Shown here piece after piece: positions 12,939-45,264 of a stretch of 64,000 nt of DNA. The stretch is from positions 1,550,001 through 1,614,000 of the forward strand of contig OZ287074.1 of assembly GCA_965645245.1 (NCBI GenBank). The letters run 5' to 3'. The notes below the pieces were generated by a model. That model was not told the DNA's origin. It was given only the letters and a program-made list of their open reading frames with translations, and did not search any database. Position 1 is the first letter of the stretch. Each line of letters opens with the position of its first letter. The stretch comes from Massalongia carnosa (taxonomy: Eukaryota). Both the position numbers and the translations under genes were made by a program.

Positions 12939-12939
12939 G

Positions 12940-15272: not shown

Positions 15273-17138
15273 ATCGGTCCTCCTCCTTCTACACCATCGG
15301 TCCTCCTCCTTCTACACCATTGGTCCTCCTCCTTCTACACCATCGGTCCTCCTCCTTCTACACCATCGGTCCTCCTCCTTCTACACAATCGGACTATCGG
15401 TCCTCACCACGGAGACGCCAAAGGCCTCACCGTGGGGCGACCGCCAAACATATAGATTTGCTACTATCTCTTCGCATCAAAACCATGCTAATTTAACGCG
15501 TTCACACGCGTCGCAGACGTACGTACGGAAGAGGATAAGAAGGCCAACCGCCGAAGGTAGAATGCGCGCGTCCCTGCACCATACTTCTAAGGGTACAAGT
15601 CCCTTCATGCAGTCATCAGCTGGAAGAAGATGTGGACCAAAGGAGCCGCATCATCCCCCACCCGGGCAAAGTAAACACGCGTTCTAGCTCCTGAGAGTTC
15701 AAGTCTCCCCATGCAGTCATCAGCTGGGATCAACAGAACGCGTAAAGGCACCGGGGCGAATGCTGTCATCTCAAGAAAACTCCATCTCGGAGCAGAATAA
15801 CAATATCCCATTTAATAGGCCCGGCCTGTTAAATAAAATTGAAGAAAACAGAGAATTATAAAACACATAGTCATCAATCACACGTTGTACAAAGTACACA
15901 GCCATAAAGCACACAGTCAAAAAGTACACAGTCACAAATATACAGTCACAAATATACAGTCACAAAACACACAGTCACAAAAAACACAGTCAAAAATCAA
16001 TAACACGTCCCTGTGAAGGGGGTTCTGCGGGGGCTCGTTAAGACAGATCTGCACCCCGTTAATATCGGATTACATATTTTTAGAGGTTCAAGGCCTTTCT
16101 AGCAGTCATCAGCTGAAAATAATGTATTTTGACACGGGCATAGTGTGGATTTGACACGGGTAGACCTCGATGGATCACAAAACGAATGAAAAGAGTTCAG
16201 CGGAACTTCGTTAATATGTTCTCGAAGACCTCGTTAATAAGATTTTCATAGACCTCGTTAACAACGTTCGGTCATAATCTTAAATGTTTAAGTCCTTTCA
16301 TGCAGTCATCGGCTGAGAGCTAAAGACGTACGACACGGGTCAGCTATGTCTATCACATGGGTCTCCTTCGCCTACAACACGGAGCCCTCCGGCTGAAAGA
16401 AATAAAACATATAGATACATAGTGTAGGGTCACACCCTACACGATACAAGGGATTTGGGTTATGAAAACCATCCGATTGATAGCTACCGTGAGCAACACG
16501 GCCCGAACCGGAGTCGTACCGGGGATGGTAGAGGCAACCTAGTCATCAAATAGGACACCCTTGGGACAAGAAGAGGGCAATATACGAGGACCCCGTTAAT
16601 TTATAACTGTCTAGGCCCTGAGCTAATAGACGACTTTCAAACGAGCACCCCTCCGAGTTGTCCTCGACTCGTTTTGGTTAGTAGGGACAGAAAATCGATA
16701 CTATACTGCCTGTTCAGGAGCATTGTGGTCGAAATCCCTGCGAGACATGGTCGGTTCATAAACGGGAGACCTTTATGAATAACGCGAAGTGGGCGTAAAA
16801 AACCCGTGAAGCGTGGTATGCAATGGCGGCCACCGTACGGAGACCGTCTGCATAGCCCGAGAGGACAGTATGCGCATGTCGGTGTATATAGAGCGGGGAA
16901 TGTCTATCTCGCTCGTAACGAGACCCCGTTGGTTCGCCGGCGCATGGGCTACGGCTAGACTCGCCCTTGATATATGCTTAAGGAGTAAACTTGGTTTGAC
17001 CTGGGCGAAAGGGACGTCGTTTACCCCAATCGTAGAATTCATCAATAGTCTTGGGCCGTAAAACGCACTAGTAAGATGAACGAAAACTGGGATAGAGACT
17101 TCACGAAGGAGATGTCAACTCTATTTTATCATTCTTAG
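15273..17138 (+). other. Unclassified ~1.87-kb structured non-coding repeat, copy 1 (putative retrocopied RNA)
   Basis: Colinear with three other copies. Five 23-nt repeats at the 5' end, four internal stem-loop modules, fixed 3' end TATCATTCTTAG. No TIR, LTR, poly(A) or long ORF. Confidence 0.85.
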
Positions 17139-19638
17139 CCCGAAACAAAAACGTTTTATCAAGTCTATTACTCGATGTCGAAGGAGCATTTGACTTTGTT
17201 TCGATTAATCAATTGCTAAATGTCATGAAAAAGCTGCATTTATCTCGCATAGTTATTCAATGGGTCAAGCATTTTATGACAAAACGATCGATCAATTTGA
17301 TATTCGATGAACACAAAAGCAAAACGTACTATATCGAATCTGGAATTCCACAAGGTTCACCTATTTCGCCAATTCTATTTCTGATTTATATTCGTTACTT
17401 ATTTCCGAAAATACGAATGAAATTCAATGCTCATTCACCTAGCTTTATAGACGATTTTGCAATATATGTCGAAAATAAAACTGCTAAACAGAATTGCAAA
17501 GAAATCGAAATTATCGTCAAAACAGCTTTTGATTGGGCCGCAACGAATAATGTCAAATTTGATGACGACAAATCTGAGTTGATTCACTTCGAAAAGTCAA
17601 GAAATGCATCAAAAGACAAAGTGCAATTACCAAACGGGACAATACTAGAACGGAAAAATTCTGTCAAATTGTTAGGGGTCTGGTTAGACCGAAAACTAAA
17701 TTACAAAAAACACGTCGAAACGCGAATTGCTTCTGCGAATCGATCGTTTTTCGCAATTCAAATTTGATGAAGTCTGAATGGGGACTAAAGCCAACTGCAT
17801 GCAGACAGCTCTATTTGTCATGCATTATTCCTATTTCGAACTATGGCTCAGAAATCTGGTATAATTGTCAAAAGAAATATGAAAAGCTATTTCGAATCTG
17901 CAAAATCGAATGATTCGAAAGATTTTAGGCACATTCAAAACCACGCCTGTTCAGGCGATGGAAATTGAATCGCATATTTTACCAGCCAAGCTACGATTGT
18001 TGATAAAAAATCAAAAATACGCAATTCGATTATTGAAGATTGCCGGAAATAATCCTATTTGTCAAAGAATTCACAGTACCTATTCGGTAAAATTCGAAAA
18101 CATCGGTTTTGACACTAGTTTATGGAACAACAGATATGCTGAATGGAGCGAAGACGAGAAAAAATCGAGTAAACCTCATCCTAGTCAGCTTATCCGTATT
18201 CTTTATTCCGTTTCGGATATAGTTCACAAAACTGATGATTTCGAATCAGTAAATAATTTCATCAAACCATGGAAGCCGTCTTGTAAAATCAAGTTCCAAA
18301 TCGAAAGATCCAAAGAAACAGCAAAGTCAAGTTATTATTTGACTTTATCAAAACTTCAATCAATAAACGCCGCTAAATCGCGAGTGTTACTCTATGCCGA
18401 TGAATCAAAAACGGAGTTTTCAACTTCCGCTGTCACATTTGCACCAATTATGCGAAATTGGAACAATTTCACCGATAACTTCAATCGTTTTATCGAAAAA
18501 GATTGTCTCCTCAAACATCATACGATTTCGAAAAGCGGGAAATTAAACAAACAGTCAAGCGTTAAAAACGCTGAACTGTATGCGATACTACAAGCAATAA
18601 AATGGGCATACAAATTGACAAGTGCGAATATTCTCTCCTATTTAGAAAAAACGATTTTGATTTTTTCCGATAGCATAAACGCGATAAACGAAATTTAGAA
18701 CTTGACAAATCATACTTACGCAAAACAAATTCGAAAATTCTCGAAATGCTTATTCGGAAACAATTATCAGGTGGTTCTACAATGGATTCCTAGTCATTCG
18801 AAAATCGTCGAAAATGAAATTGCAGATAAAGCAGCAAAAGTGGGACATAGTCGAATCCTTGTCGAGTCTTCGATAATAACATTTGATTATGTAAAGGGTC
18901 AAATAAATCGAAATATGTTAGCCACATGGGCGAATCAACGGCAACAATGCAAGTCAAAAGGCAAATACTATGAGAAATTCGAAATGCAGCCGGGCAAATC
19001 GAGTTTTTATTATCTGTCGAATAATTGTTCGAAATTGATATTTGCGACTATTATGCAAATGAAATTCGGACACGGTTATTTTCGATCATATCTGCACCGA
19101 TTGAAAGATTATAATTCGTCAAAATACACAGGGCGCTGCAAAGAACGTCAAACGCCTAAACACTTATTGATGAATTGCATACATTATTCCAATGGAATCC
19201 TAAACATGAAACAAAATATCGATACCACAATTACTTTAAAAATGTTGTTTAATACTAGGATCGGAAATAATATTTTGATTAAATTTATTGTTGATAACAA
19301 AATCGCGACTAGAAAATAGATGCTAGGTCATCTCGATAACGAAAATATCGATACGGGAGGTTTGGGAGAGATCGAGAAGTGAAATTAGAAATGATTTATG
19401 CTGGAATATTCACGAGCTTTACAAAAAGAAAATGTAGAATCGATATTTCGATTACTAAAGGTTATTACTAACACGGAGTAAAAACGGGACAATATTGACA
19501 ATACATAGTTGGGTTATAAAGGGTTGATTTATTTTGTAAAATAAAAACATATCTTAAAATAGTTTAGTGTCATAACCTTAGGTTGAATACACTTAATGAA
19601 TAAATAAAATAAAATAAAATAAAAAAAATATAAAAAAA
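17139..19638 (+). mobile_element. LINE family 1 subfamily A, 5'-truncated (RT-RNase H-3' end), frameshifted
   Basis: GIPQGSPISP, FIDD, LQWIPSHS...NEIADKAAK motifs; 3' UTR and (TAAAA)n tail. Confidence 0.95.
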
Positions 19639-20028
19639 TCTATTTCGAACAATTGTTTGACAAACGACAAAAGCTCGATTTGCCAGGTTTCATTTCGAAT
19701 TTCTCGTAATATTTGCCTTTTGACCTGCATCGTTGCCATTGATTGATTCATCCATTTATTTAGCGTATTTTGATAAATTTGACTTTTCAAAGAGTCGAAT
19801 GTGATCGCCGAGAACTCTGAAAGGATTTGACTGTGTCCCGCTTTCGCCGTTTTATCTGAAATTTCGTTTTCGATAATTTTCCAATGACTAGGAATCCATT
19901 GCAGAATTATCTGATACTTGTTTTCGACAAAACATTTAGCAATCTTTCGAATTTGCTTCGCGTAAATATGATTTGTCAAATGTTGATTTTTGTTTATCGC
20001 GTTTAAACTATCGGAAAAAATCATATTC
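19639..20028 (-). pseudogene. Diverged LINE family 1 RNase H fragment (third variant)
   Basis: IFSDSLNAIN...ILQWIPSHWKIIENEISDKTAK in ORF 19593-20111. Confidence 0.8.
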
Positions 20029-20250
20029 ATGAAGCATCTCGAAAAATGACTACACTCGAATAAACAAACGCGCTCTCGAGAGCGCACAGCGAAAGGAGGG
20101 AATATTTGCACGTAAAGATCAAGGAGTATCTTGATCGAGTGGGTACCGTTGGTGACCCGGAGGTGTTGCAGTTGCTGAGAAACTCAGCGGAAATTTTGCA
20201 AGCCCAAAATCTAGTCGATGACAAAGTTGCAGAAACTCCCAACAACATAG

Positions 20251-23080
20251 TGAAGAAGGGTAGTCGTGCGTGCTAATAGAAGGTCGTGGTACTTGATGAT
20301 AGATGGCGAATTAAGCAGTGAACATATACACATACACAAACGTCTGAATGGACCTAAGACTGCACAGACATGAAAAGAACTCGACGACTGAACGACTGAA
20401 CGACTGAACGACTGAACGACTGAACGACTGAACGACTGAACGACTGAACGACTGAACGACTGAACGACTGAACGACTGAACGACTGAACGACTGAACGAC
20501 TGAACGACTGAACGACTGAACGACTGAACGACTAGTTGATGCACGAAATGATCGTGTGTCGATGTCTACGTGACACGACGATGATAATGATAGCGTAGGT
20601 AATAGAAGATGATATCCGGAGATGATGAAGAAAACGCCAGCAAAATACCCGTTTTATCCCCACACAGGCCTGCCATGTCACCTGACCATAGATGACACAT
20701 GTCGCCCCACCACAATAGGTGACACATTACAGGCAATCCAACAATTATTGACACGTATAGAACGCAATGAGACCACTCCTCGCAGCTATGCCGCTGCTGC
20801 CACAGGGCAAGGCCGAGATGAGCCCGCACCCCTAAAGAACTAAAACGTCAAGCCTCAATAGGCCCGTAAAGACAAAGCACCTACATTAAGAGAAGCGCGA
20901 AGTGCCCGGGAAATCACCGTTCACATCACGGAGGATGCGGACAAGGAAAAAATAAAGCTAATGCCAACCAAGGAGTTGGTAGAAACACTACAAAATAGAG
21001 CTGAAGGAATAAGGGGAGTGTCGCGTTTGTTAAACGGCGACATCAGGATTCACGTAGAGTCATTGGAAGCAAAGAAGACCCTGCAGGAGAAGACCGATTG
21101 GACCCGCAAGGTGGCCGCCTCAGCTGCGGTGCACACCCGCACCTTCACCGTATGAGAGATTATAATCAGGGTGGAAAACATCAAAGTGGCCAATCAATCA
21201 ACAGCTATTACCTACCTTCAGGCCGATAACGCACGCCTGCATCCTAACCTGAAGATCGTCAAAGTAGCCTGGTCAATCAAGGCCATCAGAGAGAAAAAAG
21301 CGTACTCGACGCTTCATATAGAGGTCGCCACCGCCGAGATGGCTAACCGGCTCATCACCGAGGGCCTAATGGAAAGCTACGAAATAAAGGACTGCAAGCG
21401 CTTCACACGTGGTACACCATGACTCAATGCTTCAACTGCCAAAAATACGGAAACAACGGTAGAGCATGCCGCAATCCCGCCGCCTGTGGTCACTGCGCCG
21501 GTGGACATCAAAGCAAAGATTGCAATCTGGAGACAACGGGGTAATACCGCCGTTGCGCCGTATGCGGAGAGAAGGGACACGAAGCATGGTCTACAGAATG
21601 CAAAGTCAGATTAGCTGAAAAGCGAAAAACTGAAATATCAATGCAAAACCGCGGCCCCCTCTATGCAATCGAATCTCAGCCGCCCTCATTTCAATTTCAA
21701 CTTCAACGAGAGTCGACACCCACAGTCACACAAACGGACGAAATTCCGTCAACGTGGAAGATAGTAAACGGCAAGAAAAGAAAAATACACAACGCTACGC
21801 CCTCATCCGGCACACCCCCGGGCCCTCATCGGGGAGACGACGCACCTACCTGGGCTAATATAGGCATCATGAATCCTGAAAATATGGTAAAGGCCTTAGC
21901 AAAACCAGTGCTGGGTAGGCCTCGTGCAGATTCCGTAGCATTAACGGCAGGAACTCAGGTCACATCGAACACAGCGGCCGAAACGATAGAAATCCTATGA
22001 GGGACACAAAATCCCTCTCTATATTGCAGTATAATATCAGAAATGACAGAGTGAGTACTATGATACCCCTCTTAGCAGACATAAACACCCAGGACTATGA
22101 TATTATTGCAATACAGGAACCGTAGCGCAATCCATCCGCCCCCACATCGCTTAGTTCTCATCAAAGCGGCTTTCACCTCCAATACCGCCCAGGAGGTGAC
22201 ACCAGAGTATGCTTTTATGTCAACGACCTAATAGATACTGACAGCTGGGAGGTAAAATTCACCTCGGCCGACATATGCAGTTTGAAAATAAAGACCTACA
22301 CCGAAGGCGTTATGGAAACAATTCACGTCCATAATGTGTATAACCCCTCTCCCGCCTCCAATTCATCCACTGACAGTCCCACGACCTTACCGGCGGCTCG
22401 GAGCATGCTTATCGCCGATGCGCATCACATACTACTTGGAGATTTCAACCTACATCATCCCTTTTGGAATGGTCCCTCAAGACCCATACAACACGCTGCT
22501 GCTAATCAATTACTAGAAATAATCGATGATTATAATCTTTCATTGATACTGCCGAAATGCACATTAATATAGGAAGCAAGAAACACGTCTAGCATGATAG
22601 ATTTGGTTTTCATGTCAGAATATCTAGTCGTAAGACTCGAACATTGCATGTCCAGACTAGAATTGAATCAATCGTCCAATCACGTGCCGATACCAACCCG
22701 CATCCTACTCGGAAGCGAGCCGCAACCGAAAATCAAACGCAGAGCATGGAAACTTCTAAACCTGGAAAAAGCAAGGGAGGCCGAACAACTCGCCCCTATA
22801 CCGGAGTCTCCCCGTACCACTGCCGAGATTGATACGTACAAGGAATAGATTCAAAAATTTCTACAAAATGTCATCAACGAAGCAGTTCCATGTGCAAAAT
22901 CTAGCGAATATGCTAAGCCATTCTAGACAGAAGAATGCAGCATTGCCACCAAAGCCACACGAAAACTACGCCGCGTATGGTCCAGCACGTTCGACCTAAC
23001 GGACTATTCTAACTATATGAAATCCAATGATAAAAGACAGAAATTCATTGAAAAGGCAAAGAGAACAAACTTTCGTCAAA
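20251..23080 (+). mobile_element. LINE family 2, 5' half (5' UTR, ORF1 with CCHC knuckles, ORF2 APE endonuclease), decayed
   Basis: 5' end shared with 63779 and 60776(-). ORF1 ~20622-22000 with QCFNCQKYG...CGHCAGGH...CAVCGEKGH. ORF2 from ATG 21997 with LQYN, IQEP, LGDFNLHHPFW. Confidence 0.9.
20384..20533 (+). repeat. 8-bp microsatellite (GAACGACT)n in the LINE family 2 5' UTR
   Basis: About 18-19 perfect units here; about 4 units at ~63916-63945 and about 2 at ~60620-60640. Confidence 0.95.
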
Positions 23081-23124
23081 TAAATCTTCTTGATTTAATC
23101 TCGTTGAAATCTTCTGAACAACAA

Positions 23125-27900: not shown

Positions 27901-30900
27901 TTTATTTTTATTCATTAAGTGTATTCAACCTAAGGTTATACTAAACTATTTTAGGATATGTTTCTAAATTACAAATAAATCAACCCTTTATAACCCTTCT
28001 ATGTATCGTTAATTTTTCCCCATTTTTACTCCGTGTTAGTAACGACCTATAGTAATCGAAGAATATCGATTTTACAATTTGTCTTTTTAAGTTCGTGAAT
28101 CTTTCAGCATAAATCGTTTCTGATTTTACTGTTCGATCTCTCCCCAACCTCCAGTTTCGAAAATCTCGTCATCAAGCTGACCTAGTATCCATTTTCTAGT
28201 CGCGATGTTGTTATTGATAATGAATTTAACAAAAATATCATTTCCGATTTTTTGTATTAAATAACATTCAAGTTGATCGTAGTATCGATATTTTGTTTCA
28301 TATTTTAAATTTCATCGAAATAGTGAATGCAATTCAATAACAAGTGTTCTGGCGTTTGTCGTTGATTGCATTGATTTGTGCATTTTGACGTTATAATCTT
28401 TCAACCGTTGTAAATATGATCGAAAATAGAGGTGTCCGAATTTTAATTGCATAATAGTAGCAAATACCAATTTGGAACAGTTGTTTGATAAATAATGAAA
28501 TCTCGATATGCCAGGTTTCATTTCGAATTTCTCGTAGTATTTGCCTTTTGATTTGCATCGTTGTCATTGATTCGTCCATATGGTTAGCTTATATTGATTT
28601 ATTTGATCTTTTATATAATCAAATGTTATCGCCGAGGACACGACTAGGATTTGATTATGGCCCGTCTTTGCTATTTTGTCTGCAATTTCGTTTTCGGTAA
28701 TATTTGAATGACTCGGAACCCATTGCAAAATCACCTGAAAATTTCTTTCAAATAAATAAGAGTTTTGCGAGCTTTCGAATTTGTCTGGCGCAAATATGAT
28801 TTCTCAAGTTCTGAATTTCTTATATCGCGTTTATACTATCAGAAAAAATCCAAATCGTTTTTTCTAAGTTCGATAAAATATTAGTATTCAACAATTTATA
28901 GACCCATTTCATTGCTTGTAAAATCGCCTGCAGTTAGTTTAGCGTTTTAAATGCTTGACTGTTTGCTTTATTTCCAGCATTTCGAAATCGTATGATACTT
29001 GATCAGACAATGTTTTTCGATAAATCGATCAAAATTATTGATATTATTACTCCAATTCCTCATAATTGGCGCAAATGTGACTGCAGATGTTGCAAATTCG
29101 ATTTTCGATCCATCTATATAAAGTAAAAGTCGGGATTTATCGGAGTTCATTGATTTAATTGTGGATAAGGTTGAATAATAAGTAGATTTAGCAGATTCCT
29201 TTGTATTTTCGATTTGAAATTCGATTGTGCACGGCGATTTCCAAGGTTTAATAAAATGATTTGATTGTTCAAATTCATCAGTTTTGTGAACTATGTCGGA
29301 AACGGAATGAAGAACGGGAATAAGCTGACTATGATGTCGTTTATTTGTTTTTTTTTCGTCTTCGTTCCATTCGGCATATTTGTTGTTCCATAAACTAGTG
29401 TCAAAACCGATATCTTTGAATTTTATCGAATATGTTTTTGGAATTCTTTGACAAATAGAGTTATTTTCGGCAATCTTCAATAATCGAATTGCGTATTTTT
29501 GATTTTTCATTAATAATCGAAGTTTAACTGGTAAACAATGTGATTCAATTTCCATCGCCTGAATAGGTGTGGTTTTGAAAGTTCCGAAAATCTTTCGAAT
29601 CATTTGATTTTGTAGGTTCTGAAATAGTTTTTCATATTTCTTTTGACCATTATACCAAATTTCTGTGCCGTAGTCCGAAATAGGAATAATGCATGACAAA
29701 TAGAGCTGTCTGCATGCGGTCGGTTTCAGACCCCATTCGGATTTCATCAAATTCTGAATTGCAAAAAACGATCGATTCGCAGAAGAGATCCGCGTTTCGA
29801 CGTGTTTTTTGAAATTTAGTTTTCGGTCTAACCAGACGCCCAACCATTTGACTACATTTTTCGGTTCTAGTACTGTCACGTTTGGTAATTCCAATGTGTC
29901 TTTGGATACATTTCTTGTCTTTTCGAAGTGAATCAGCTCGGATTTATCGTCATCAAATTTGACATTATTCGATGCGGCCCAATCAAAGGCCGTTTTGACT
30001 ATGATTTCGATTTTTGCAATTCTGTTTTGCAGTTTTATTTTCGACATATATTGCAACATCGTCAATAAAACTGGGAAAATGTGCATTGAATTTCATTAAT
30101 ATTTTCGGAAACAAGTGACGAATGTAAATCAGAAATAGAATAGGCGAGATAGGTGAGCCTTGTGGAAGTCCTGATTCGACATAAAATGTTTTGCTTTATT
30201 TTAATTAAATATCAAATTGATCGTTCGTTTTGTCATGAAATGCTTGACCCATTGAATTTTTATGCGAGATAATTTCAGCTTTTTCATATATTTAGCAGTT
30301 GATTAATCGAGACAAAGTCAAATGCGCCTTTGACATTGAGTAATAAAAATGATAAGACGTTTTTATTTCTATTTGCAATTTCAATAACATGAACAACGTT
30401 CATTACTGCGTCAATTGCAGAATGGTTTTTGAGTCCGCCCATCTGTTCGATATCGAGTAAATTCGAATTTTCGCCGAAGTAGGCTAGTCGATTTGCAACG
30501 ATTTTCTCAGCAATTTTACCAAGACAATTTAGTAATGTGATAATTCGATATGATTTTGGAAGAGAATAGTCTGATTTATTGGGTTTTTTAAGAGCTGCAC
30601 CGAGTCCTGTCCGCCAGCATAACGGGTGATAACCGATTCGAATGAATTTCGAATAAATCATGAAAAACACGTTTTTCAACGATTGAAACGATTTTTGAAC
30701 GATTGTAAAATTGATTGCATCAGGTCCACATGCTTTCTTCGGATTAAATAAACTAATCGCATTTTTCAACTCGTTTTCCGTCAAATCTGGCCAATTATTA
30801 TCATTTTCGCTGCCTTGATTTGATAAATCTTCCACATTATCGTCAATATATGGGTTTTTTGTGTATATTGCTGACACAAATGCATCGCATTTGTCATCAA

Positions 30901-31430
30901 ACTGAACATTTAGCTTGTTTTCATGTAGAATCGGGGGTATTTTTTCGAATATGCGCGGTTTAGTGTATTTATACGCGATAAATACATCTTTATTTGCTGC
31001 ATTTTCTAGAAAAGTCAACCATGTTTGTTGTTTTGCTTTTCGAATTGCATGAAAATACTCGATTCGACTATGTTTAAACGTCCGATGACTAAAATCGGAC
31101 GGATAATTCTTCTATTCTCGACGATATCTGCACATGGTTTTTCGAAGTTCAGTTAAATCTTGCGACCACCAATTTTTCGATTTTGCACAAATTCTCGTTT
31201 TCGTAATAAACATTTCAGCCGCGTTTTTGATAATATTTTGCAAATATATGGCTGATTCGTCGAATTGATGATTATTCAATAAACTTTGAACTTGTGTTCG
31301 TAGATGGTTGAATTTTCGTTTAGATACTTCGCAAATTTATTCCAATCGGCTTTATTGCAATTCTATTTATTCGATAATGCGGTTGCATGTGACGTCAAAT
31401 TTTTGAAAGATGCGATTAGTTCAAATCGGA
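27901..31430 (-). mobile_element. LINE family 1 subfamily B, 5'-truncated
   Basis: RT/RNase H ORF pieces 30284-31018 and 28968-30086; 3' UTR and tail at 27901. Confidence 0.93.
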
Positions 31431-31880
31431 GCCCTGGATAGTTTTGTCATTTTTTCCTGGATTTTCCTTTTGTGAGCACCCCACTTCAATTTTGAATCGA
31501 TTTGAAGTCCTAGAATTCTGATTTCTGTCTTTGGTTTTATGATGTTATTTCTTATTTGAATAACAGTGAACATGTTGAATTTCTTCGGATTTCTTGACAG
31601 ATTTATCAATTCGTATTTCTTCGGAGCGAAGACTGAACCATGTCGACTTGCCCATTTTTCACATTTTTTGTGAATTACCTCTAGCGTCCTGCAATTTTCT
31701 TCGGTGCTTTTTCCGTATGCTAGCAAATTCATGTCATCTACGAAGCCTAGAGCACTCGTGTTACTGCCTGGTCTTTCACATGTGTCTAGTAGGTCTGCAT
31801 TTTAGAACAGATAAAGAATAGGAGAAATGGGGGAGCTTTCTGGGATTCCGGTTTTTACATCGAATATGACCGTGAATCGG
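31431..31880 (-). pseudogene. RT fragment of a different LINE (family 2-like)
   Basis: SPISPILYLF...GFVDDMNLLAYGKS...IRILGLQIDSKLKW. Confidence 0.85.
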
Positions 31881-33653: not shown

Positions 33654-34688
33654 TTCGACAAAACCGACGAATTAAATGCAATCAAACTCAGACGACTGAT
33701 AATTACACCAAAAATTCAAATTGGCGATATCAACTCATTGAAACTTCAAGATCAAATCAACGCGCAATTCAGCAACGCGAAGTTAGATATCGTAATCAAC
33801 ACGGTCGAAAAATCGAAAACCGGTCAGAATATCGTTCTCACTACTAGTTCGAAAAACACTGCTGCAGAATTGTTGGAAAACAAATCTATATGGGAACATA
33901 TGTTCGATGCACAAAGAATTCGAAAAGAGGAATCCTGGTTTAAAGTTATCGCACATGGAGTAAATATTGCAACGTTTGATCAAAATATGCAATATTTGCA
34001 AAATGAAATCCAGAAATTCAACCTTAACATGGAATTATGCGATTTACCCACATGGCTAGCGCGAGACCGCGGAAATAAAGTCAATTCTTAGGTCGTTTTG
34101 ACTTTTAACGATCGAAATCAGGCCTTAAACGCGTTAAAAGGCGTAAATATCGCGGGAAAACACTGTGACACGGAAATATTTTCTTTCGTTCGTCCGAATA
34201 CACAATGTATTAATTGTCAAAAATTCGGACAAAAGCATTATCAGTGTCGAAAAAAATCAAAATGCAATATTTGTGCACAAAATCATGAAACACGTAATCA
34301 TGAATGCATAACATGCAAATCGAAAACTGCGTGTGCAAACGTTGTTGTGAAATGTGTTAACTGAAATAAAAATCATCAATCAAACGATGAACATTTTGAA
34401 ATGTTTACTGCATTAAATCCACGAAAATCGGCTGACGAATTATCCGCCTTATAATGGCAGGACAGCATTCGTTGGCAAATATAGAAAATACTCACAATGT
34501 CAAATTTATTCAACACAACTGTGGAAGGTCAACGAATGCAATGACTTCGTGTTAGGAATATGCTTTATCAAATCAAACTGATATTGTTTTGTTTCAGGAA
34601 CCATGGACACGAGATCAAAAAACTATATCACATCCGTCATTTACATGTATTTTGCCGAAAATAGCTACTTATCGCTCGAGAGTAGCTA
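33654..34688 (+). mobile_element. LINE family 1 fragment (ORF1 3' half, ORF2 start)
   Basis: ORFs 33738-34364 with CINCQKFGQKH/CNICAQNH; TAATG junction at ~34452. Confidence 0.9.
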
Positions 34689-37488
34689 TTTTTTTATTTT
34701 TTATTTATTCATTAAGTGTATTCAACCTAAGGTTATGACACTAAACTATTTTAGGATATGTTTCTATATTACAAATAAATCAACCCTTTATAACCCATCT
34801 ATGTATTGTCAATTTTTCCCCATTTTTACTCCGTGTTAGTAACAACCTATAGTAATCGAAGAATATCGATTTTAAAATTTGTCTTTGTAAGTTCGTGAAT
34901 TTTTCAGCATAAATCGTTTCTGATTTTACTGTTCGATCTCTCCCCAACCTCCAGTTTCGAAAATCTCGTCATCAAGCTGACCTAGTATCAATTTTTTGGT
35001 CGCGATTTTGTTATTGACAATGAATTTAATAAAAATGTCATTTCCGATTTTTTGTATTAAAAAACATATTCAAGTTGATCGTAGTATCGATATTTTGTTT
35101 CATGTTTTGAATTTCATTGAAATAGTGAATGCAATTCAATAACAAGTATTCTGGCGTTTGTCGTTGATTGCATCGATTTGAGCATTTTGACGAATTTAAT
35201 CTTTCAATCGCTGTAAATATGATCGAAAATAGCCGTGTCCGAATTTTAATTGCATAACAGTACCAAATATCAATTTGGAACAGTTGTTTGATAAATAATA
35301 AAATCTCGATATGCCAGGTTTCATTTCGAATTTCTCGTAGTATTTGCCTTTTGATTTGCATTTTTGCCATTGATTCGTCCATGTGGTAAGCATATTTTGA
35401 TTTTTTTATTTTTATTTATTTATTCATTAAGTTTATTCAACCTAAGGTTATGACACTAAACTATTTTAAGATATGGTTTTATTTTATAAATAAATCAACC
35501 CTTTATAACCCAACTATGTATCGTCAATATTGCCCCGTTTTTACTCCGTGTTAGTAACAACCTTTAGTAATCGAAATATCGATTTTAAAATTTGTTTTTG
35601 TAAAGCTCGTAAATATTCCAGCATAAATCATTTCTAATTTTACTGTTCGATCTCTCCCCAACCTCCCGTTTGGATATTTTCGTCATCGAGCTGACCAAGC
35701 ATCCATTTTCTAGTCGCGATTTTGTTATCAATAATAAATTTAATCAAAATATTATTTCCGATCCGAGTATTAAACAACATTTTTAAAGTAATTGTGGTAT
35801 CGATATTTTGTTTCATGTTTAGGATTTCATTTGAATAATGTATGCAATTCATCAATAAGTGTTCTGGCGTTTGACGTTTGTTGCAGCGCCCTGTGCATTT
35901 TGACGAATTATAATCTTTCAATCGGTGCAGATATGATCGAAAATAACCGTGTCCGAATTTCATTTGCATAATAGTTGCAAATATTAATTTAGAACAATTA
36001 TTCGACAGATAATAAAAACTCGATTTGCCCGGCTGCATTTCGAATTTCTCATAGTATTTGCATTTTGACTTGCATTGTTGCCATTTATTCGCCCATGTGG
36101 CTAACATATTTCGATTTATTTGACCCTTCACATAATCAAATGTTATTATTGAAGACTCGACTAGGATTCCACTATGTCCCGCTTTTGCTGCTTTATCTGC
36201 AATTTCATTTTCGACGATTTTCGAATGACTAGGAATCCATTGTAGAACCACCTGATAATTGTTTCCGAATAAGCATTTCGAGAATTTTCGAATTTGTTTT
36301 GAATAAGTATGATTTGTCAAGTTCTGAATTTCGTTTATTGCGTTTATGCTATCGGAAAAAATCCAAATCGTTTTTTCCAAATTGAAGAGAATATTCGCAA
36401 TTGTCAATTTGTAGGGCCATTTTATATATTTTGATTTATTTGATCTTTTTCATAATCAAATGTTATCGCCGAGGACTCGACTAGGATTTGATTATGGCCC
36501 GTCTTTGCTATTTTGTCTGCAATTTCGTTTTCGGTAATATTTGAATGACTCGGAACCCATTGCAAAATCACCTGAAAATTGCTTTCAAATAAGAGTTTTG
36601 CGAGCTTTCGAATTTGTCTGGCGAAAATATGATTTGTCAAGTTCTGAATTTCGTTTACCGCGTTTATACTATCAGAAAAAATCCAAATCGTTTTTTCTAA
36701 GTTCGATAAAATATTAGTATTCGACAATTTATAGACCCATTTCACTGCTTGTAAAATCGCATGCAGTTCAGCATTTTTAATGCTTGACTGTTTGCTTAAT
36801 TTCCAGCTTTTCGAAATCGTATGATACTTGATCTGACAATCTTTCTCGATAAATCGATTAAAATTATTGATAATATTACTCCAATTCCTTATAATAGGCG
36901 CAAATGTGACTACAGACGTTGCAAATTCGATTTTCGATCCATCTGTATAAAGTAAAACTCGGGATTTATCGGTGTTCATTCATTTAATTTTGGATAAGGT
37001 CGAATAATAACTTGATTTAGCAGATTCCTTTGTATTTTCGATTTGAAATTTGATTTTGCAAGGCGATTTCCAAGGTTTAATAAAATGATTTGATTGTTCA
37101 AATTCATCAGTTTTGTGAACTATGTCGGAAACGGAATGAAGAACGCGAATAAGCTGACTAGGAAGTCGTTTATTTGTTTGTTTTCCGTCTTCGTTCCATT
37201 CGGCATATTTGTTGTTCCATAAACTTGTGTCAAAACCGATATTTTCGAATTTTATCAAATATGTGTTTGGAATTCTTTGACAAATAGGGTTATTTTCGGC
37301 AATCTTCAATAATCGAATTGCGTATTTTTTATTTTTCATTATTAATCGAAGTTTAACTGGTAAAACATGTGATTCAATTTCCATCGCCTGAACAGGTGTG
37401 GTTTTGAAAGTTCCTAAAATCTTTCGAATCATTCGATTTTGCAGATTCTGAAATAGCTTTTCATATTTCTTTTGACCGTTATACCAGA
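34689..37488 (-). mobile_element. LINE family 1 subfamily B 3' part, interrupted by a subfamily A insertion
   Basis: ORFs 36980-37432, 36422-36979 and 35196-35393; tail at 34689. Confidence 0.92.
35404..36425 (-). mobile_element. LINE family 1 subfamily A, 5'-truncated, nested in subfamily B
   Basis: ORF 35640-36407; own tail; TSD ATATTTTGATTT at 35392-35403 and 36426-36437. Confidence 0.92.
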
Positions 37489-39310
37489 CTAAGAATGATA
37501 AAATAGAGTTGACATCTCCTTCGTGAAGTCTCTATCCCAGTTTTCGTTTATCTCACTGGTGCGTTTTACGGCCCAATATTATTGATGAATTCTATGATTG
37601 GGGTGAACGACGTCCCTTTCGCCCAGGTCAAACCCAGTTTACTCCTTAAGCATATATCAAGGGCGACCGTAGCCCATGCGCCGGCGAACCGACGGGGTCT
37701 CGTTACGAGCGAGATAGACATTCCCTGCTCTATATATAACGACATGCGAATACTGTCCTCTCGGGCTATGCAGACGGTCTCCGTACGGTGGCCGCCATTG
37801 CATACCACGCCTCACGGGTTTTTTACGCCCACTTCGCGTTATTCATAAAGGTCTCCCGTTTATGAACCGACCATGTCTCGCAGGGATTTCGACCACTATG
37901 CTCCTGACCAGGCAGTATAGTATCGATTTTCCGTCCTTACTAACCAAAACGAGTCGAGGACAACTCGGAGGGGTGCTCGTTTGAAATTCGTTTATTAGCT
38001 CAGGGCCTAGACTGTTATCAATTAACGGGTTCCTCGTATATTGCCCTCTTCTTGTCCCAAGGGTGTCCTATTTGATGACTAGGTTGCCTCTACCATCCCC
38101 GGTACTACTCCGGTTCGGGCCATGTTGCTCACGGTAGCCATCAATCGGATGGTTTTCACAACCCAAATCCCTTGTATCGTGTAGGGTGTGACCCTACACT
38201 ATGTGTATATATGTTTTATTTCTTTCAGCCGGAGGGCTCCGTGTTGTAGACGAAGGAGACCCGTGTGACAGACATAGCTGACCCGTGTCGTACGTCTTTA
38301 GCTCTCAGCCGATGACTGCATAAAAGGACTTGAACTTTTAAGAGTATGACTGAACGTTGTTAACGAGGTCTATGAAAATCTTATTAACGAGGTCTTCGAG
38401 AACAATATTAACGAAGTTCCGCTGAACTCTTTTCATTCGTTTTGTGATCCATCGAGGTCTACCCGTGTCAAATCCACACCATGCCCGTGTCAAAATGCAT
38501 CATTTTCAGCTGATGACTGCTAGAAAGGACTTGAACCTCTAAAAATATATACGCCGAAATTAACGGGGTGCAGATCTGTCTTAACGAGCCCCCGCAGAAC
38601 CCCCTTCACAGGGACGTGTTATTGGTTTGTTACTGTGTTTTTTGTGACTGTGTGTTTTTTGACTATGTGTTTGTGACTGTATGTTTGTGACTGTGTGCTT
38701 TGTACAACGTATGATTGATGACTATGTGTTTTGTGACTCTGTGTTTTCCTCGATTTTATTTAACAGGCCGGGCCTATTAAATGGGATATTGATATTCTGC
38801 TCCGAGATGGAATTTACTTGAGGTGACAGCATTCGCCCCGGTGCCTTTACGCGTTCTGTTGATCCCAGCTGATGACTGCATGGGGAGACTTGAACTCTCA
38901 GGAGCTAGAACGGGTGTCGATTGTGCCTGGGTGGGGGATGATGCGGCTCCTTTGGTCCACATCTTCTTCCAGCTGATGACTGCATAAAGGGACTTGAACC
39001 CTTAGAAGCATGGTGCAGGGACGCGCGCATTCTACCCCCCGGTGGTTGGCCTTCGTAACTTCTTCCGTACGTACGTCTGCGACGCGTGTGAACGCGTTAA
39101 ATTAGCATTGTTCTGATGCGAAAAGATAGGAGCAAATCTATGTTTGTCGGTCGCTCCACGGTGAGGCCTTTGGCGTCTCCGTGGTGAGGACCGATGGTGT
39201 AGAAGGAGGAGGACCGATGGTGTAGAAGAAGGAGGACCGATGGTGTAGAAGGAGGAGGACCGATGGTGTAGAAGGAGGAGGACCGATGGTGTAGAAGGAG
39301 GAGGACCGAT
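37489..39310 (-). other. Unclassified structured non-coding repeat, copy 3
   Basis: Reverse complement of copy 1; five 23-nt repeats; same 3' end. Confidence 0.85.
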
Positions 39311-39373
39311 ATATAATAATTTGATAGTAAATGTGATAGTAATTTAAATGATGCGGTGGTGCTTTAGTGATAT

Positions 39374-40468
39374 TCCCGTTTGGTAATTCCAATGTGTCTT
39401 TCGATACATTTCTTGTCTTTTCGAAGTGAATCAGCTCGGATTTATCGTCATCAAATTTGACATTATTCGATGCGGCCCAATCAAAGGCCGTTTTGACTAT
39501 GATTTCGATTTCTTTGTAATTCTGTTTTGCAGTTTTATTTTCGACATATATTGCAACATCGTCAATAAAACTGTGAGAATGTGCATTGAATTTCATTCGT
39601 ATTTTTGGAAATAAGTGACGAATGTAAATCAGAAATAGAATAAGCGAGATAGGTGAGCCTTGTGGAAATCCTGATTCGACATAATATGTTTTGCTTAAAT
39701 TTTCATCAAATATCAAATTGATCGATCGTTTTGTCATGAAATGCTTGACCCATTGAATTATTATGCGAGATAATTTCAGCTTTTTCATAACATTTAGCAG
39801 TTGATTAATCGATACAAAGTCAAATGCGCCTTTGAAATCGAGTAATAAACATGATAGGACGTTTTTATTTCTATTTGCAATTTCAATATCATGAACAACG
39901 ATCATTACTGCGTCAATTGCAGAATGATTTTTGCGTCCGCCCATCTGTTCGATATCGAGTAAATTCAAATTTTCGCAGAAGTAGACTAGTCGATTTGAAA
40001 CGATTTTCTCAGCAATTTTACCAAGACAATTTAGTAATGTGATAATTCGATATGATTTTGGAAAAGAATAGTCCGATTTATTAGGTTTTTTCAGAACTGC
40101 ACCGAGTCCTGTCCGCCAGCATAACGGGTGATAACCGATTCGAATGAATTTCGAATAAATCATGAAAAACACGTTTTTCAACGATTGAAACGATTTTTGA
40201 ACAATTGTAAAATTGATTGCATCAGGTCCACATGCTTTCTTCGGATTAAATAAACTAATCGCATTTTTCAACTCGTTTTCCGTCAAATCTGGCCAATTAT
40301 CATCATTTACGCTGTCTTGATTTGATAAATCTTCCTCATTATCGTCAATAAATGGGTTTTTTGTATACATTGCTGACACAAATGCATCGCATTTGTCATC
40401 AAACTGAATATTTAGTTTGTTTTCATGTAGAATCGGGGGTATTTTTTCGAATATGCGCGGTTTAGTGT
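39374..40468 (-). mobile_element. LINE family 1 subfamily B RT segment (continues upstream at 45788-47055)
   Basis: ORF 39138-40379 RT motifs up to ELPNG; joins 45788 across a 12-bp TSD. Confidence 0.9.
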
Positions 40469-43400
40469 TTTTTATTTATTCATTAAGTGTATTCAACCTA
40501 AGGTTATGACACTAAACTATTTTAAGATATGGTTTTAATTTACAAATAAATCAACCCTTTATAACCCAACTATCTATCGTCAATATTGCCCTGTTTTTAC
40601 TCCGTGTTAGTAACAACCTTTAGTAATCGAAATATCGATTTTACAATTTGTTTTTGTAAAGCTCGTAAATATTCCAGCATAAATCATTTCTAATTTTACT
40701 GTTCGATCTCTCCCCAACCTCCCGTTTCGATATTTTCGTCATCGAGCTGACCTAGCATCCATTTTCTAGTCGCGATTTTGTTATCAACAATAAATTTTAT
40801 CAAAATATTATTTCCGATCCTAGTATTAAACAACATTTTTAAAGTAATTGTGGTATCGATATTTTGTTTCATGTTTAGGATTTCATTTGAATAATGTATG
40901 CAATTCATCAATAAGTGTTCTGGCGTTTGACGTTCGTTGCAGCACCCTGTGCATTTTGACGAATTATAATCTTTCAATCGGTGCAGATATGATCGAAAAT
41001 AACCGTGTCCGAATTTCATTTGCATAATAGTCGCAAGTATCAATTTCGAACAATTATTCGACAGATAATAAAAACTCGATTTGCCCGGCTGCATTTCGAA
41101 TTTCTCATAGTATTTGCCTTTTGACTTGCATTGTTGCCATTGATTCGCCCATGTGGCTAACATATTTCGATTTATTTGACCCTTTACATAAAGAAATGTT
41201 ATTATCGAAGACTCGACTAGGATTCGACTATGTCCCGCTTTTGCTGCTTTATCTGCAATTTCATTTTCGACGATTTTCGAATGACTAGGAATCCATTGTA
41301 GAACCATCTGATAATTGTTTCCGAATAAGCATTTCGAGAGTTTTCGAATTTGTTTTGCGTAAGTATGATTTGTCAAGTTCTGAATTTCGTTTATCGCGTT
41401 TATGCTATCGGAAAAAATCCAAATCGTTTTTTCCAAATTGAAGAGAATATTCGCAATTGTCAATTTGTATGCCCATTTTATTGCTTGTAGTATCGCATAC
41501 AGTTCAGCGTTTTTAACTCTTGACTGTTTGTTTAATTTCCAGCTTTTCGAAATCGTATGATGTTTGAGGAGACAATCTTTTTCGATAAAACGATTGAAGT
41601 TATCGGTGAAATTGTTCCAATTTCGCATAATTGGTGCAAATGTGACAGCGGAAGTTGAAAACTCGGTTTTTGATCCATCGGTATAGAGTAACACCCGCGA
41701 TTTATCGGCGTTTATTGATTGGATTTTTGATAAAGTCGAATAATAATAACTTGACTTTGCTGTTTCTTTGGATCTTTCGATTTGGAACTTGATTTTACAA
41801 GACGGCTTCCATGGTTTGATGAAATTATTTACTGATTCGAATTCATCAGTTTTGTGAACTATATCCGAAACGGAATGAAGAATACGGATAAGCTGACTAG
41901 GATGAGGTTTACTCGATTTTTTCTCGTCTTCGTTTTATTCAGAATATCTGTTGTTCCATAAACTAGTGTCAAAACCGATGTTTTCGAATTTCACAGAATA
42001 GGTACTGGGAATTCTTTGACAAATAGAATTATTTTCGGCAATCTTCAATAATCGAATTGCCGAATTTTGATTTTTCATCAACAATCGTAGCTTGGCTGGT
42101 TAAATATGCGATTCAATTTCCATCGCCTGAACAGGCGTGGTTTTGAATGTGCCTAAAATCTTTCGAATCATTCGATTTTGCAGATTCTGAAATAGCTTTT
42201 CATATGTCTTTTGACCGTTATACCAGATTTCTGAGCCATAGTCCGAAATAGGAATAATACATGACAGATAGAGCTGTCTGCATGCAGTTGGCTTTAGTCC
42301 CCATTCAGACTTCATCAAACTTTGAATTGCGAAAAACGATCGATTTGCAGAAGCAATTGGCGTTTCGACGTGTTTTTTGTAATTTAGTTTTCGGTCTAAC
42401 CAGACTCCTAACCATTTGACAGAATTTTTCGGTTCTAGTATTGTCCCGTTTGGTAATTGCACTTTGTCTTTTGATGCATTTCTTGACTTTTCGAAGTGAA
42501 TCAACTCAGATTTGTCGTCATCAAATTTGACATTATTTGTTGCGGCCCAATCAAAAGCTGTTTTGACGATAATTTCGATTTCTTTGCAATTCTGTGTGGC
42601 AGTTTTATTTTCGACATATATAGAAACATCGTCTATAAAGCTAGGTGAATGAGCATTGAATTTCATTCGTATTTTCGGAAATAAGTAACGAATATAAATC
42701 AGAAATAGAATTGGCGAAATAGGTGTACCTTGTGGAATTCCAGATTCGATATAGTACGTTTTGCTTTTGTGATCATAGAATATCAAATTGATCGATCGTT
42801 TTGTCATAAAATGCTTGACCCATTGAATAACTATGCGAGATAAATGCAGCTTTTTCATAACATTTAGCAATTGATTAATCGAAACAAAGTCAAATGCTCC
42901 TTTGACATCGAGTAATAGACATGATAAAACGTTTTTGTTTCGGTTTGCGATTTCGATATCATGAACGACGTTCATTACCGCATCGATTGCAGAATGATTT
43001 TTCCGTCCGCCCATTTGTTCAGTATCTAACAAGCTCGAATTTTGGCCGAGGTAGGCTAGTCGATTAGCAACTATTTTCTCCGCAATTTTACCAAGATAAT
43101 TCAGTAAGGTAATAATTCGATATGATTTTGGCAGCGAGTAGTCTGGTTTATTAGGTTTTTTTAAAACAGCACCGAGTCCTGTTCGCCAACATAACGGGTG
43201 ATAACCGATTTGTATAAATTTAGAATAAATAGTAAAAAACACGTTTTTCAATGGTTGAAACGATTTTTGAATTATTGTGAAATTGATTGCATCAGGTCCA
43301 CATGATTTCTTTGGATTAAACAAACTAATCGCATTTTGCAATTCATTTTCGGTTATATTCGGCCAATTGTTGTCATTTTCGCTTTCTTGATTCGTTAAAT

Positions 43401-43530
43401 CTTCAATATTATCATCCGTGAACGGGTTTTTTGTGTACATTGCTGACACAAACGCATCGCATTTGTGATCGAATTGAACATTTAACTTATTTTCATATTG
43501 AATAGGTGGTATTTTTTCGAACATGCGCGG
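40469..43530 (-). mobile_element. LINE family 1 subfamily A, 5'-truncated
   Basis: ORFs 42100-43524 (RT) and 40696-41694 (RNase H: YTDGSK, NAELYAI, FSDS, WIPSH); tail at 40469. Confidence 0.95.
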
Positions 43531-45264
43531 CTAAGAATGATAAAATAGAGTTGACATCTCCTTCGTGAAATCTCTATCCCAGTTTTCGTTCATCTCACTG
43601 GTGCGTTTTACGGCCCAAGACTATTGATGAATTCTACGATTGGGGTGAACGACGTCCCTTTCGCCCAGGTCAAACCCAGTTTACTCCTTAAGCATATATC
43701 AAGGGCGAGTCTAGCCGTAGCCCATGCGCCGGCGAACCAACGGGGTCTCGTTACGAGCTAGATAGACATTCCCTGCTCTATATACACCGACATGCGCATA
43801 CTGTCCTCTCGGGCTATGCAGACGGTCTCCGTACGGTAGCCGCCATTGCATACCACGCCTCACGGGTTTTTTACGCCCACTTCGCGTTATTCATAAAGGT
43901 CTCCCGTTTATGAACCGACCATGTCTCGCAGGGATTTCGACAGCTATGCTCCTGACCAGGCAGTATAGTATCGATTTTCCGTCCCTACTAACCAAAACAA
44001 GTCGAGGACAACTCGGAGGGGTTCTCGTTTGAAATTCGTCTATTAGCTCAGGGCCTAGACTGTTATCAATTAACGGGTTCCTCGTATATTGCCCTCTTCT
44101 TGTCCCAAGGGTGTCTTATTTGATGACTAGGTTGCCTCTACCATCCCCGGTACGACTCCGGTTCGGGCCGTGTTGCTCACGGTAGCCATCAATCGGATGG
44201 TTTTCATAACCCAAATCCCTTGTATCGTGTAGGGTGTGACCCTACACTATGTGTCTATATGTTTTATTTCTTTCAGCCGGAGGGCTCCGTGTTGTAGACG
44301 AAGGAGACCCGTGTGATAGACATAGCTGACCCGTGTCGTACGTCATTAGCTCTCAGCCGATGACTGCATGAAAGGACTTGAACCTTTAAGAGTATGACCG
44401 AACGTTGTTAACGAGGTCTATGAAAATCTTATTAACGAGGTCTTCGAGAACAATATTAACGAAGTTCCGCTGAACTCTTTTCATTCGTTTTGTGATCCAT
44501 CGAGGTCTACCCGTGTCAAAATACATTATTTTCAGCTGATGACTACTAGAAAGGACTTGAACCTCTAAAAATATGTACTCCGATATTAACGGGGTGCAGA
44601 TCTGTCTTAACGAGCCCCCGCAGAACCCCCTTCACAGGGACGTGTTATTGGTTTGTGACTGTGTTTTTTGTGACTGTGTGTTTTGTGACTGTGTGTTTGT
44701 GACTGTATGTTTGTGACTGTGTGCTTTGTGACTGTGTGCTTTGTACAACGTGTGATTGATGACTATGTGTTTTGTGACTTTGTTTTCCTCGATTTTATTT
44801 AACAGGCCGGGCCTATTAAATGGGATATTGTTATTCTGCTCCGAGATGGAGTTTTCTTGAGGTGACAGCATTCGCCCCGGTGCCTTTACGCGTTCTGTTG
44901 ATCCCAGCTGATGACTGCATGGGGAGACTTGAACTCTCAGGAGCTAGAACGCGTGTCGACTGTGCCCGGGTGGGGGATGATGCGGCTCCTTTGGTCCACA
45001 TCTTCTTCCAGCTGATGACTGCATGAAGGGACTTGAACCCTTAGAAGCATGGTGCAGGGACGCGCGCATTCTACCCCCCGGCGGTTAGCCTTCGTATCCT
45101 CTTCCGTACGTACGTCTGCGACGCGTGTGAACGCGTTAAATTAGCATTGTTTTGATGCGAAGAGATAGGAGCAAACCTATGTTTGACGGTCGCCCCACGG
45201 TGAGGCCTTTGGCGTCTCCGTGGTGAGGACCGATGGTGTAGAAGGAGGAGGACCGATGGTGTAG
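43531..45264 (-). other. Unclassified structured non-coding repeat, copy 4
   Basis: Reverse complement of copy 1; about 1.3 23-nt repeats; same 3' end. Confidence 0.85.

Follow-up and report, generated by a model that had tools for sequence, protein, structure and literature searches.

Why should copies of one non-coding sequence, all ending at exactly the same base, run in every case into a retrotransposon that faces the same way and is entered at a different point each time? This question is raised by a 64,000-nt stretch of the Massalongia carnosa genome (GCA_965645245.1, contig OZ287074.1, positions 1,550,001-1,614,000 of the forward strand), which we refer to as the window and whose positions serve as coordinates throughout. 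The repeated sequence, here called P, is present in four full copies (P1 to P4; 1,734-1,866 bp), and its neighbor is a long interspersed nuclear element (LINE). We consider it probable that P was copied into DNA from a discrete, structured, non-coding RNA of ~1.75 kb, and that the P-LINE units are chimeras made when the LINE reverse transcriptase (RT) jumped from one RNA template to another.

The four copies are 92.7-94.7% identical to one another, as determined by self-BLAST and MAFFT alignment, and all of them terminate in CTTAG at the identical 3′ base. The 23-mer at this end, CAACTCTATTTTATCATTCTTAG, has four exact matches in the window, ending at positions 17138(+), 33653(+), 37489(-), and 43531(-), and zero occurrences over 100 shuffles, which confirms the proposal of an initial annotation of this DNA that four copies end at one base. 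A four-way alignment that included 100-bp flanks revealed that homology breaks off sharply at both the 5′ and the 3′ limits of P, and a profile search of the window yielded no fifth copy. P also has a defined 5′ end, which consists of a 23-bp tandem repeat (ATCGGTCCTCCTCCTTCTACACC) present in 2.4-5.4 copies as assessed by Tandem Repeats Finder (TRF). Three of the four copies begin at the repeat unit ATCGGTCC..., and the start of P4 falls within the repeat. The ~30 nt directly upstream of the P3 repeats (39311-39340, minus strand; …CTATCACATTTACTATCAAATTATTATAT) resembles the sequence upstream of P in a public sequencing run (run X6). Given this likeness, the P RNA may in some copies begin before the tandem repeat.

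No poly(A) or other tail is present beyond CTTAG. The largest open reading frame (ORF) of P1 encodes at most 137 amino acids and no in-frame ORF is common to all copies, and therefore we rejected a protein-coding role for P. Differences among the copies are distributed in a star-like manner: over 1,672 aligned columns, 129 are private to one copy and only 9 are shared two by two, with P4 carrying just 12 private substitutions over the same columns. This pattern suggests that the copies were taken from a nearly uniform RNA source.

The partner is a fungal, Tad1-like LINE whose family carries APE, RT, and RNase H domains and whose nearest named relatives are ascomycete elements of Lasallia and Sclerotinia. 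Positions along it are given relative to a full-length copy at 50622-57559 (ref). Two subfamilies that are ~86% alike, termed ref-like and a-like, occur in the window; the LINE 3′ end reads ...CTTAATGAATAAA and is followed by an A-rich tail. The full-length 5′ ends at 50622, 23125, and 59046 share a ~1.1-kb 5′ region that is dissimilar to P. LINE-derived sequence in the same orientation lies directly 3′ of every P copy (4/4) and begins at four different ref positions (Table 1), precisely as the initial annotation had claimed, although its spacing of 0-1 nt must be widened: the sequences do adjoin, with a measured 0-2 nt between them. The partner of P2 has lost its 3′ part, which is cut away by an opposite-strand LINE tail at 34689. 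In intact LINE copies, all four junction points are preceded by AAA and followed by C or T (p ~3e-5 for random positions). When joints from sequencing-run contigs are included, the untemplated or extra nucleotides at P-LINE junctions number 0-5. RTs of retrotransposons without long terminal repeats (LTRs), such as R2, make end-to-end jumps in vitro onto the 3′ end of an acceptor without homology, often with a few untemplated nucleotides. The extra nucleotides observed here resemble this behavior, although the R2 feature comes from in vitro biochemistry on another LINE clade.

Several simpler origins for the joints were rejected. Splicing onto LINE acceptor sites was dismissed because the LINE bases before the junctions are AAA and not AG, and segmental duplication because the junctions differ and the sequences upstream of P are unique in the window. 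A site-specific LINE that inserts into a P-containing target was likewise set aside because there is no common sequence past the LINE tails. With regard to a target continuation of the R1/R2/Tx1 type, the sequences after the LINE tails of the P1 and P4 chimeras (c1 and c4) are unrelated both to each other and to P.

A nested block on the minus strand (34689-50601) could be reconstructed. Four LINE pieces (b, e, g, and i) are consecutive in LINE coordinates, all ref-like, and similar in divergence (1.6-2.3% private), and we therefore regard them as one old LINE, designated O. There are three interruptions of O: X4 plus P4 plus LINE d, 63 nt plus P3, and LINE h. The first of these is a 5,320-bp block (40468-45787) made up of X4 (523 bp), P4, LINE d (itself 3.07 kb), and an A-rich tail, and it is flanked by an 11-bp repeat, CACTAAACCGC. 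Two other LINE insertions in the window have target-site duplications (TSDs) of 9 and 11 bp. X4 is the third part of a tripartite chimera, and the block as a whole fits one target-primed insertion of a tripartite complementary DNA. The initial annotation had stated that P lacks both poly(A) and a TSD of its own; no poly(A) was seen, but this one composite does have an 11-bp TSD around the whole.

The ages of the joined parts also agree. Private substitutions amount to 2.3% in P1 and 2.2-3.0% in its LINE partner, to 0.7% in P4 and 1.0-1.4% in LINE d, and to 2.2% in P3 and 1.6-2.3% in the pieces of LINE O. Divergence is thus concordant in three of three informative pairs, and this match favors the co-synthesis of P and its partner.

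The flanks upstream of the four copies (flanks X1-X4, 100-730 bp) exhibit no similarity to one another or to sequence elsewhere in the window, and flanks X1 and X4 exhibit no coding similarity to LINE proteins. Nearby, at 13838-14539(-), lies a young 5′-truncated LINE that is 98.9% identical to the full-length copy and has a clean 11-bp TSD, ACCTCTTATGA, at 13827-13837 and 14540-14550. The presence of this insertion indicates that flank X1, upstream of P1, is pre-existing DNA.

Searches of metagenome contigs established that P has relatives. The exact 22-mer from the P 3′ end gave no matches in these contigs, and a degenerate motif derived from the internal module of P (see below) recovered seven loci (L001-L007), six of which carry P relatives, whereas L002 has the motif alone. 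The six relatives are ~75-81% identical to P over 240-550 nt, have a total length of ~1.2-1.3 kb, and have in common a hairpin, a ATATAGAG box, one to three modules, the 3′ domain, and an end reading ...YTCTTRG; four of them (L001, L004, L005, and L007) also carry 5′ tandem repeats of their own, 28-34 nt each. The same four loci have sequence past the 3′ end of the element, and the contig of L003 stops exactly at the element end. Three loci (L001, L004, and L007) run at three different points into a co-oriented LINE RT with 27-28% protein identity to the window LINE, an assignment that rests on tblastn to the window ORF2. The joint of L004 is located at the FMDD motif of the RT, that of L007 ~35 codons later, and that of L001 ~5 codons after L007 and ~40 after L004. 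L005 instead leads into a co-oriented ORF that encodes two CCHC zinc knuckles and is a candidate LINE. A Pfam search of the ORFs downstream of the P-like elements in these four loci returned nothing. Two family motifs had no matches among prokaryote genome contigs and viral contigs, and a spurious conserved ORF of the 3′ domain, used as a query against a protein collection, gave only four matches. In the window itself, flank X2 (31472-31864, minus strand), which directly precedes P2, is a piece of another LINE family, one with 33.6% protein identity to the main LINE, and its RT sequence (GFVDDMNLL...RHGSVFAPKKYELINLSRNPKKFNM) resembles that of the LINE joined to P-like elements in L001, L004, and L007.

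The relatives allowed us to examine the structure of P. Each P copy contains four copies of a ~100-nt module, which is composed of a T-loop-like hairpin (GGTTCAAGTCC) followed by a near-invariant GCAGTCATCAGCTG; an outer stem that visibly covaries surrounds both, and GCAGTCATCAGCTG includes the palindrome CAGCTG. For the 3′ domain, an alignment of eight sequences (A2) was used to derive a consensus with RNAalifold, which comprises 114 pairs, 46 of them with compensatory changes, in 17 helices. Paired cells make up 96.9% of the total, as compared with 34.9-46.6% when partners are slid by 1-3 columns, although the former percentage is inflated because the structure was predicted from the same alignment. 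Double changes, however, are many: they affect 46 pairs, versus 5-15 in the slid controls, and none of 500 shuffles reached the observed covariation. The terminal hairpin alone occurs as ATAGAG/CTCTAT, GTAGGG/CCCTAC, GAAAGG/CCTTTC, and GTGGGG/CCCCAT. These compensatory base-pair changes point to selection on the RNA itself and not to accidental pseudogenes. On the basis of these alignments, P appears to belong to a new, conserved family of structured RNAs tied to LINEs that are only ~27% identical in protein.

Known RNA classes do not account for it. A search of Rfam 15, one of the checks proposed in the initial annotation, matched no known structured RNA or ribozyme family: there was no gathering-score match in the window, and none at E<=0.1 in the six relatives. 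On P1, only three chance-level matches appeared at E<=5; all scored far below the gathering threshold, and none was to a tRNA, 7SL, or 5S family. The hammerhead ribozyme was rejected for the same reason, even though the reverse strand of the module has CUGAUGA. ARAGORN predicted zero transfer RNA (tRNA) genes. We also rejected a short interspersed nuclear element (SINE), because P lacks a tRNA, 7SL, or 5S head by ARAGORN and Rfam and has only the T-loop-like GGTTCAAGTCC motifs, and because there is no constant LINE-derived or poly(A) tail, the length of the attached LINE differing with each copy. With neither a head of the RNA polymerase III type nor a constant tail, P does not fit a SINE; the initial annotation had likewise recognized no described SINE in it. 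A fungal telomerase RNA was rejected because none of the four P copies contains CCCTAA, TAACCC, or AACCCT.

Sequencing runs provided further joints. P was found in 14 listed runs, which include 'lichen metagenome' and five organisms, and Logan contigs of four runs were compared with the region 40480-47050. Among the joints listed (15 of 132), those of run X1 connect the P 3′ end to the LINE at 43251 and at 46820, with 3 extra nt each, and include a c1-type joint at 42942. Also among the joints listed are one from run X6, which represents another organism and has the P 3′ end joined at 43107 with 0 nt between, as well as LINE tail-to-LINE joints. Run X7 (another organism) contributed an 8,164-nt contig in which P is followed by 30 nt with a 12-mer in common with window position 51662; that position belongs to the 5′ region of the LINE and precedes the first LINE-region ORF (51740-52306). 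Summed word depths in run X1, which are not copy numbers, ranged from 265,000 to 504,000 over P (43560-45319), from 418,000 to 954,000 over the LINE, and from 2,800 to 13,100 over X4 (45320-45759).

The proposal of template-jump chimeras, made in the initial annotation, therefore draws support from the TSD around c4, the age concordance in three of three pairs, the variable junctions, and the further joints in runs and metagenomes. The process would begin with target-primed reverse transcription of a Tad1-like LINE RNA, initiated at the A-rich tail of that RNA. The RT would then quit the LINE RNA at a variable internal point, resume at the 3′ extremity of the P RNA, and copy it to the 5′ end; sometimes, a second jump would follow, either onto a different RNA (X4, for copy 4) or back to the LINE RNA (copy 3), before the composite is sealed into the target with a TSD. 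The P RNA so copied would consist of 5′ 23-nt repeats, four ~100-nt modules, the ~480-nt 3′ domain, and a terminal hairpin followed by a tail that ends in CUUAG. We infer the template jump itself, the free P RNA ending in CUUAG, and the manner in which its 3′ end is formed.

A well-described precedent exists in Magnaporthe, where MINE elements consist of a full-length, 1.1-kb non-coding RNA sequence termed WEIRD fused to a 5′-truncated MGL LINE (PMC2104539). There are 31 copies, 19 of them with 10-20-bp TSDs, at 28 different junction sites, and one chimera is tripartite; neither a solo WEIRD nor a homologue in other genomes was reported. The elements were attributed to template switching by the RT, with a junction context of GCC followed by A/T (PMC2104539). 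P resembles WEIRD in being a full-length copy of a ~1-2-kb non-coding RNA located 5′ of a truncated fungal LINE and joined to it directly in the same orientation, with many junction sites, a composite TSD (c4), a tripartite form, and no solo P copy seen in the window. When compared with the five criteria for MINEs (PMC2104539), the P-LINE chimeras present the features listed under (i)-(iv), and the composite direct repeats listed under (v) are clear in c4 only. The differences are that P measures 1.73-1.87 kb, whereas WEIRD measures 1.1 kb; that the host is a lichen-associated ascomycete; that P is covered in run X1 at about half the depth of the LINE, compared with 33 chimeras in Magnaporthe; and that the junction context in the window is AAA followed by a pyrimidine (Y) and not GCC followed by A/T (PMC2104539). 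Moreover, P has relatives and a covarying structure, whereas no homologues were reported for WEIRD (PMC2104539). Three WEIRD primers (PMC3978060) match no P or relative at >=15/20 bases, a comparison that says little on homology. No WEIRD- or MINE-like elements outside Magnaporthe were found in the literature searched.

Two other partnerships invite comparison. In U6 small nuclear RNA (snRNA)-L1 and other L1 chimeric retrogenes of mammals, a small full-length RNA with a non-polyadenylated 3′ end is joined to a variably 5′-truncated LINE, with TSDs (PMC2104539); in that case, a known ~100-nt snRNA of the host, which also has solo genes, serves as the acceptor, whereas P is 1.8 kb long and no solo copy was seen. 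Mg-SINE, which is associated with MGL, mimics the LINE 3′ end (PMC2104539). Like it, P is non-coding and would depend on LINE enzymes; unlike it, P has no tRNA, 7SL, or 5S head and no fixed LINE tail.

Note that a number of observations weigh against template jumping. In LINE O, ~218 bp are replaced by the 63 nt plus P3, which bring neither a TSD nor a LINE tail of their own, and this arrangement would require that the RT jumped twice in one event (LINE to P to LINE) or that P entered the LINE DNA separately. P3, which the initial annotation counted among four independent chimeras, is embedded in a LINE and does not cap a separately inserted one. For c1, the only TSD candidate is a weak 9-mer located 97 nt upstream of P1, and the P2 chimera (c2) has lost its 3′ part, so that a clear composite TSD is seen in just one of the four window chimeras (c4). 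Even c4 presents a difficulty. The 5′ end of LINE d (CCGCGCATG...) falls within the stretch that corresponds by homology to the TSD of the target LINE, and the end of b, the start of d, and the start of e place three breakpoints within 13 nt of one LINE position. This coincidence has a chance of ~0.2-0.4% by position alone and is left unexplained by the simple model; a shared sequence preference could lessen it, since the d site also follows an A-rich run, but could not remove it. Furthermore, the AAA context observed at all four window junctions is present at none of the three new run-contig junctions, run X1 may be the source sample of the window and in that case is not independent, and none of the 14 listed runs is recorded as RNA, the free P RNA ending in CUUAG being a predicted molecule.

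Alternatively, P could be a non-autonomous retroelement that was reverse transcribed at nicks in genomic LINE DNA, with the downstream LINE representing the target and not a partner synthesized with it. P3 lies inside old LINE O, with O on both sides and neither tail nor TSD; c4 can be read as an insertion of X4 plus P4 that separates b from d and is bounded by a 4-6-bp repeat, CCGC(A/G)C; and all four window junctions follow a LINE AAA, which recalls the A-rich sequence that precedes the two LINE TSDs with known targets. We nevertheless find this account unlikely, because it provides no reason why sense-oriented LINE DNA should be the target every time (4/4 in the window, and again in the run contigs and metagenome loci). 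In addition, piece b is ref-like (87% to LINE a) and d is a-like (97%), and therefore b and d do not form a single LINE; P4, d, and the tail all lie between the two copies of the 11-bp TSD; P4 and d are both the youngest pair; and the 19 Magnaporthe MINEs with TSDs have them around the whole chimera (PMC2104539). Nor do the data sit well with P being a 5′ untranslated region (UTR) or promoter module of a LINE lineage, wherein the junctions would vary because a single ancestral P-LINE underwent internal deletion or recombination and was spread by retrotransposition or duplication. Its 5′ tandem repeats do resemble some LINE 5′ UTRs, the run X7 contig passes from P into sequence sharing a 12-mer near window 51662 in the LINE 5′ region, and the joints of L001, L004, and L007 cluster within ~120 nt of the RT. 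However, the three full-length LINE 5′ ends have a different ~1.1-kb region without P similarity, deletions would not all begin at the same P base, and extra nucleotides are present at the junctions. Because the partners also span two subfamilies ~86% alike, and the LINE of the relatives is only 27% identical in protein, we regard this origin as quite improbable.

Stronger doubt attaches to the idea that the arrays grew by repeated end-addition onto eroded 5′ ends, in the manner of Drosophila telomeres or of break healing. A complete 3′ end abutting a variably truncated, co-oriented element is indeed the type of junction observed, and it occurs between LINE tail and LINE as well (LINE a against piece b, at 47054). 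Such growth is very improbable given that LINE pieces b, e, and g are without 3′ ends, that the 9-11-bp TSDs indicate ordinary insertions into existing LINEs, that elements lie on both strands within 64 kb, and that P is without a telomere-template motif. Mis-assembly could be suspected in a region that consists almost wholly of nested repeats, but false P-LINE joins are scarcely credible when four different junctions share one P base, when c1-type and further joints are present in public-run contigs that include other organisms, and when the same arrangement recurs in unrelated metagenome contigs.

Template jumping thus remains our preferred explanation, and the kind of chimera it describes is already published as MINE/WEIRD, which makes this reading less novel. 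What appears new here is a partner RNA with detectable relatives and a covarying 3′ domain that is also found beside a distant LINE family. The 2007 report (PMC2104539) leaves the origin and function of WEIRD open, with no solo gene, homologues, or role, and P offers a comparable partner RNA family. Because a conserved, structured family is linked to distant LINEs, a dedicated RNA that hitch-hikes by template jumping is a serious possibility; as between a host RNA gene and a LINE-dependent selfish element, we lean slightly toward the latter. More speculatively, P-like RNAs may constitute an old, structurally conserved ascomycete class of LINE-dependent elements that lack a LINE tail and spread only as template-jump acceptors. 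In such a class, the 3′ domain would set the exact 3′ end regardless of what lies downstream and would attract the LINE RT, the 5′ repeats would give a promoter to otherwise dead truncated LINEs, and WEIRD would be a member; we view this scheme as possible but rather doubtful. Whether some RNAs are specialized as template-jump acceptors can now be tested, as the P 3′ domain is usable as a covariance model to scan fungal genomes and its hairpin and tail serve as a handle for mutation. The pickup of P is also a possible route by which LINEs gain new 5′ ends.

Table 1. Positions of P copies, their parts, and associated LINE features in the window.
Feature	Position	Strand	Description
P1	15273-17138	+	1,866 bp, full copy
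P2	31881-33653	+	1,773 bp
P3	37489-39310	-	1,822 bp, inside old LINE O
P4	43531-45264	-	1,734 bp, youngest copy
5′ tandem repeat of P1	15273-15392	+	23 bp x 5.2, TRF
5′ tandem repeat of P2	31881-31935	+	2.4 copies
5′ tandem repeat of P3	39186-39310	-	5.4 copies
5′ tandem repeat of P4	45225-45264	-	partial
P1 module region	15556-16348	+	four ~100-nt module copies
P1 module envelopes	15556-15654, 15655-15757, 16041-16147, 16240-16348	+	
Conserved 3′ domain of P1	16660-17138	+	~480 nt, 17 helices, terminal hairpin, 15-nt single-stranded tail ending CTTAG
c1 junction			LINE start ~ref 55079, a-like
c2 junction			LINE start ref 52287, ref-like
c3 junction			LINE start ref 55794, ref-like
c4 junction			LINE start ref 54488, a-like
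LINE side of junctions	17139, 33654, 37488, 43530		preceded by AAA in intact LINEs
LINE partner of P1	17139-19639	+	a-like, ~ref 55079 to A-rich tail
LINE partner of P2	33654-34688	+	ref-like, ref 52287-53327, ORF1-side region
LINE d, partner of P4	40468-43530	-	a-like, ref 54488 to tail
X4	45265-45787	-	523 bp, low-copy, 5′ of P4 inside TSD-flanked insertion
TSD CACTAAACCGC, upstream copy	45788-45798	-	end of LINE piece b
TSD CACTAAACCGC, downstream copy	40457-40467	-	start of LINE piece e
63 nt between LINE piece e and P3	39311-39373	-	last ~30 nt like sequence upstream of P in run X6; candidate P leader
Old LINE O	34689-47061	-	ref-like; pieces b, e, g, i
LINE O pieces	b 47061-45788, e 40472-39374, g 37488-36426, i 35414-34689	-	
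LINE h	36425-35401	-	inserted in O, TSD TCAAAATAT

Further observations concern other LINE copies in the window. Two minus-strand LINEs of different subfamilies (47054-50601 and 27901-31430) are 5′-truncated within 13 nt of each other, at ref 53781 and 53794, and a 225-bp segment, present as a tandem duplicate in the full-length copy (53769-54222), begins at this point. Either a truncation hot spot or an internal start may be responsible. Distant LINE families, with 30-31% protein identity to the main LINE, are represented by further fragments at 398-928(-) and 60071-60409(-). Outside the LINEs, an ORF at 9305-10360(+) has a GAG-pre-integrase match below the Pfam cut-off (E 1.5e-5) and is probably a remnant of a Copia-type LTR element, and positions 20384-20533 hold a perfect microsatellite, (ACGACTGA) x 18.8.

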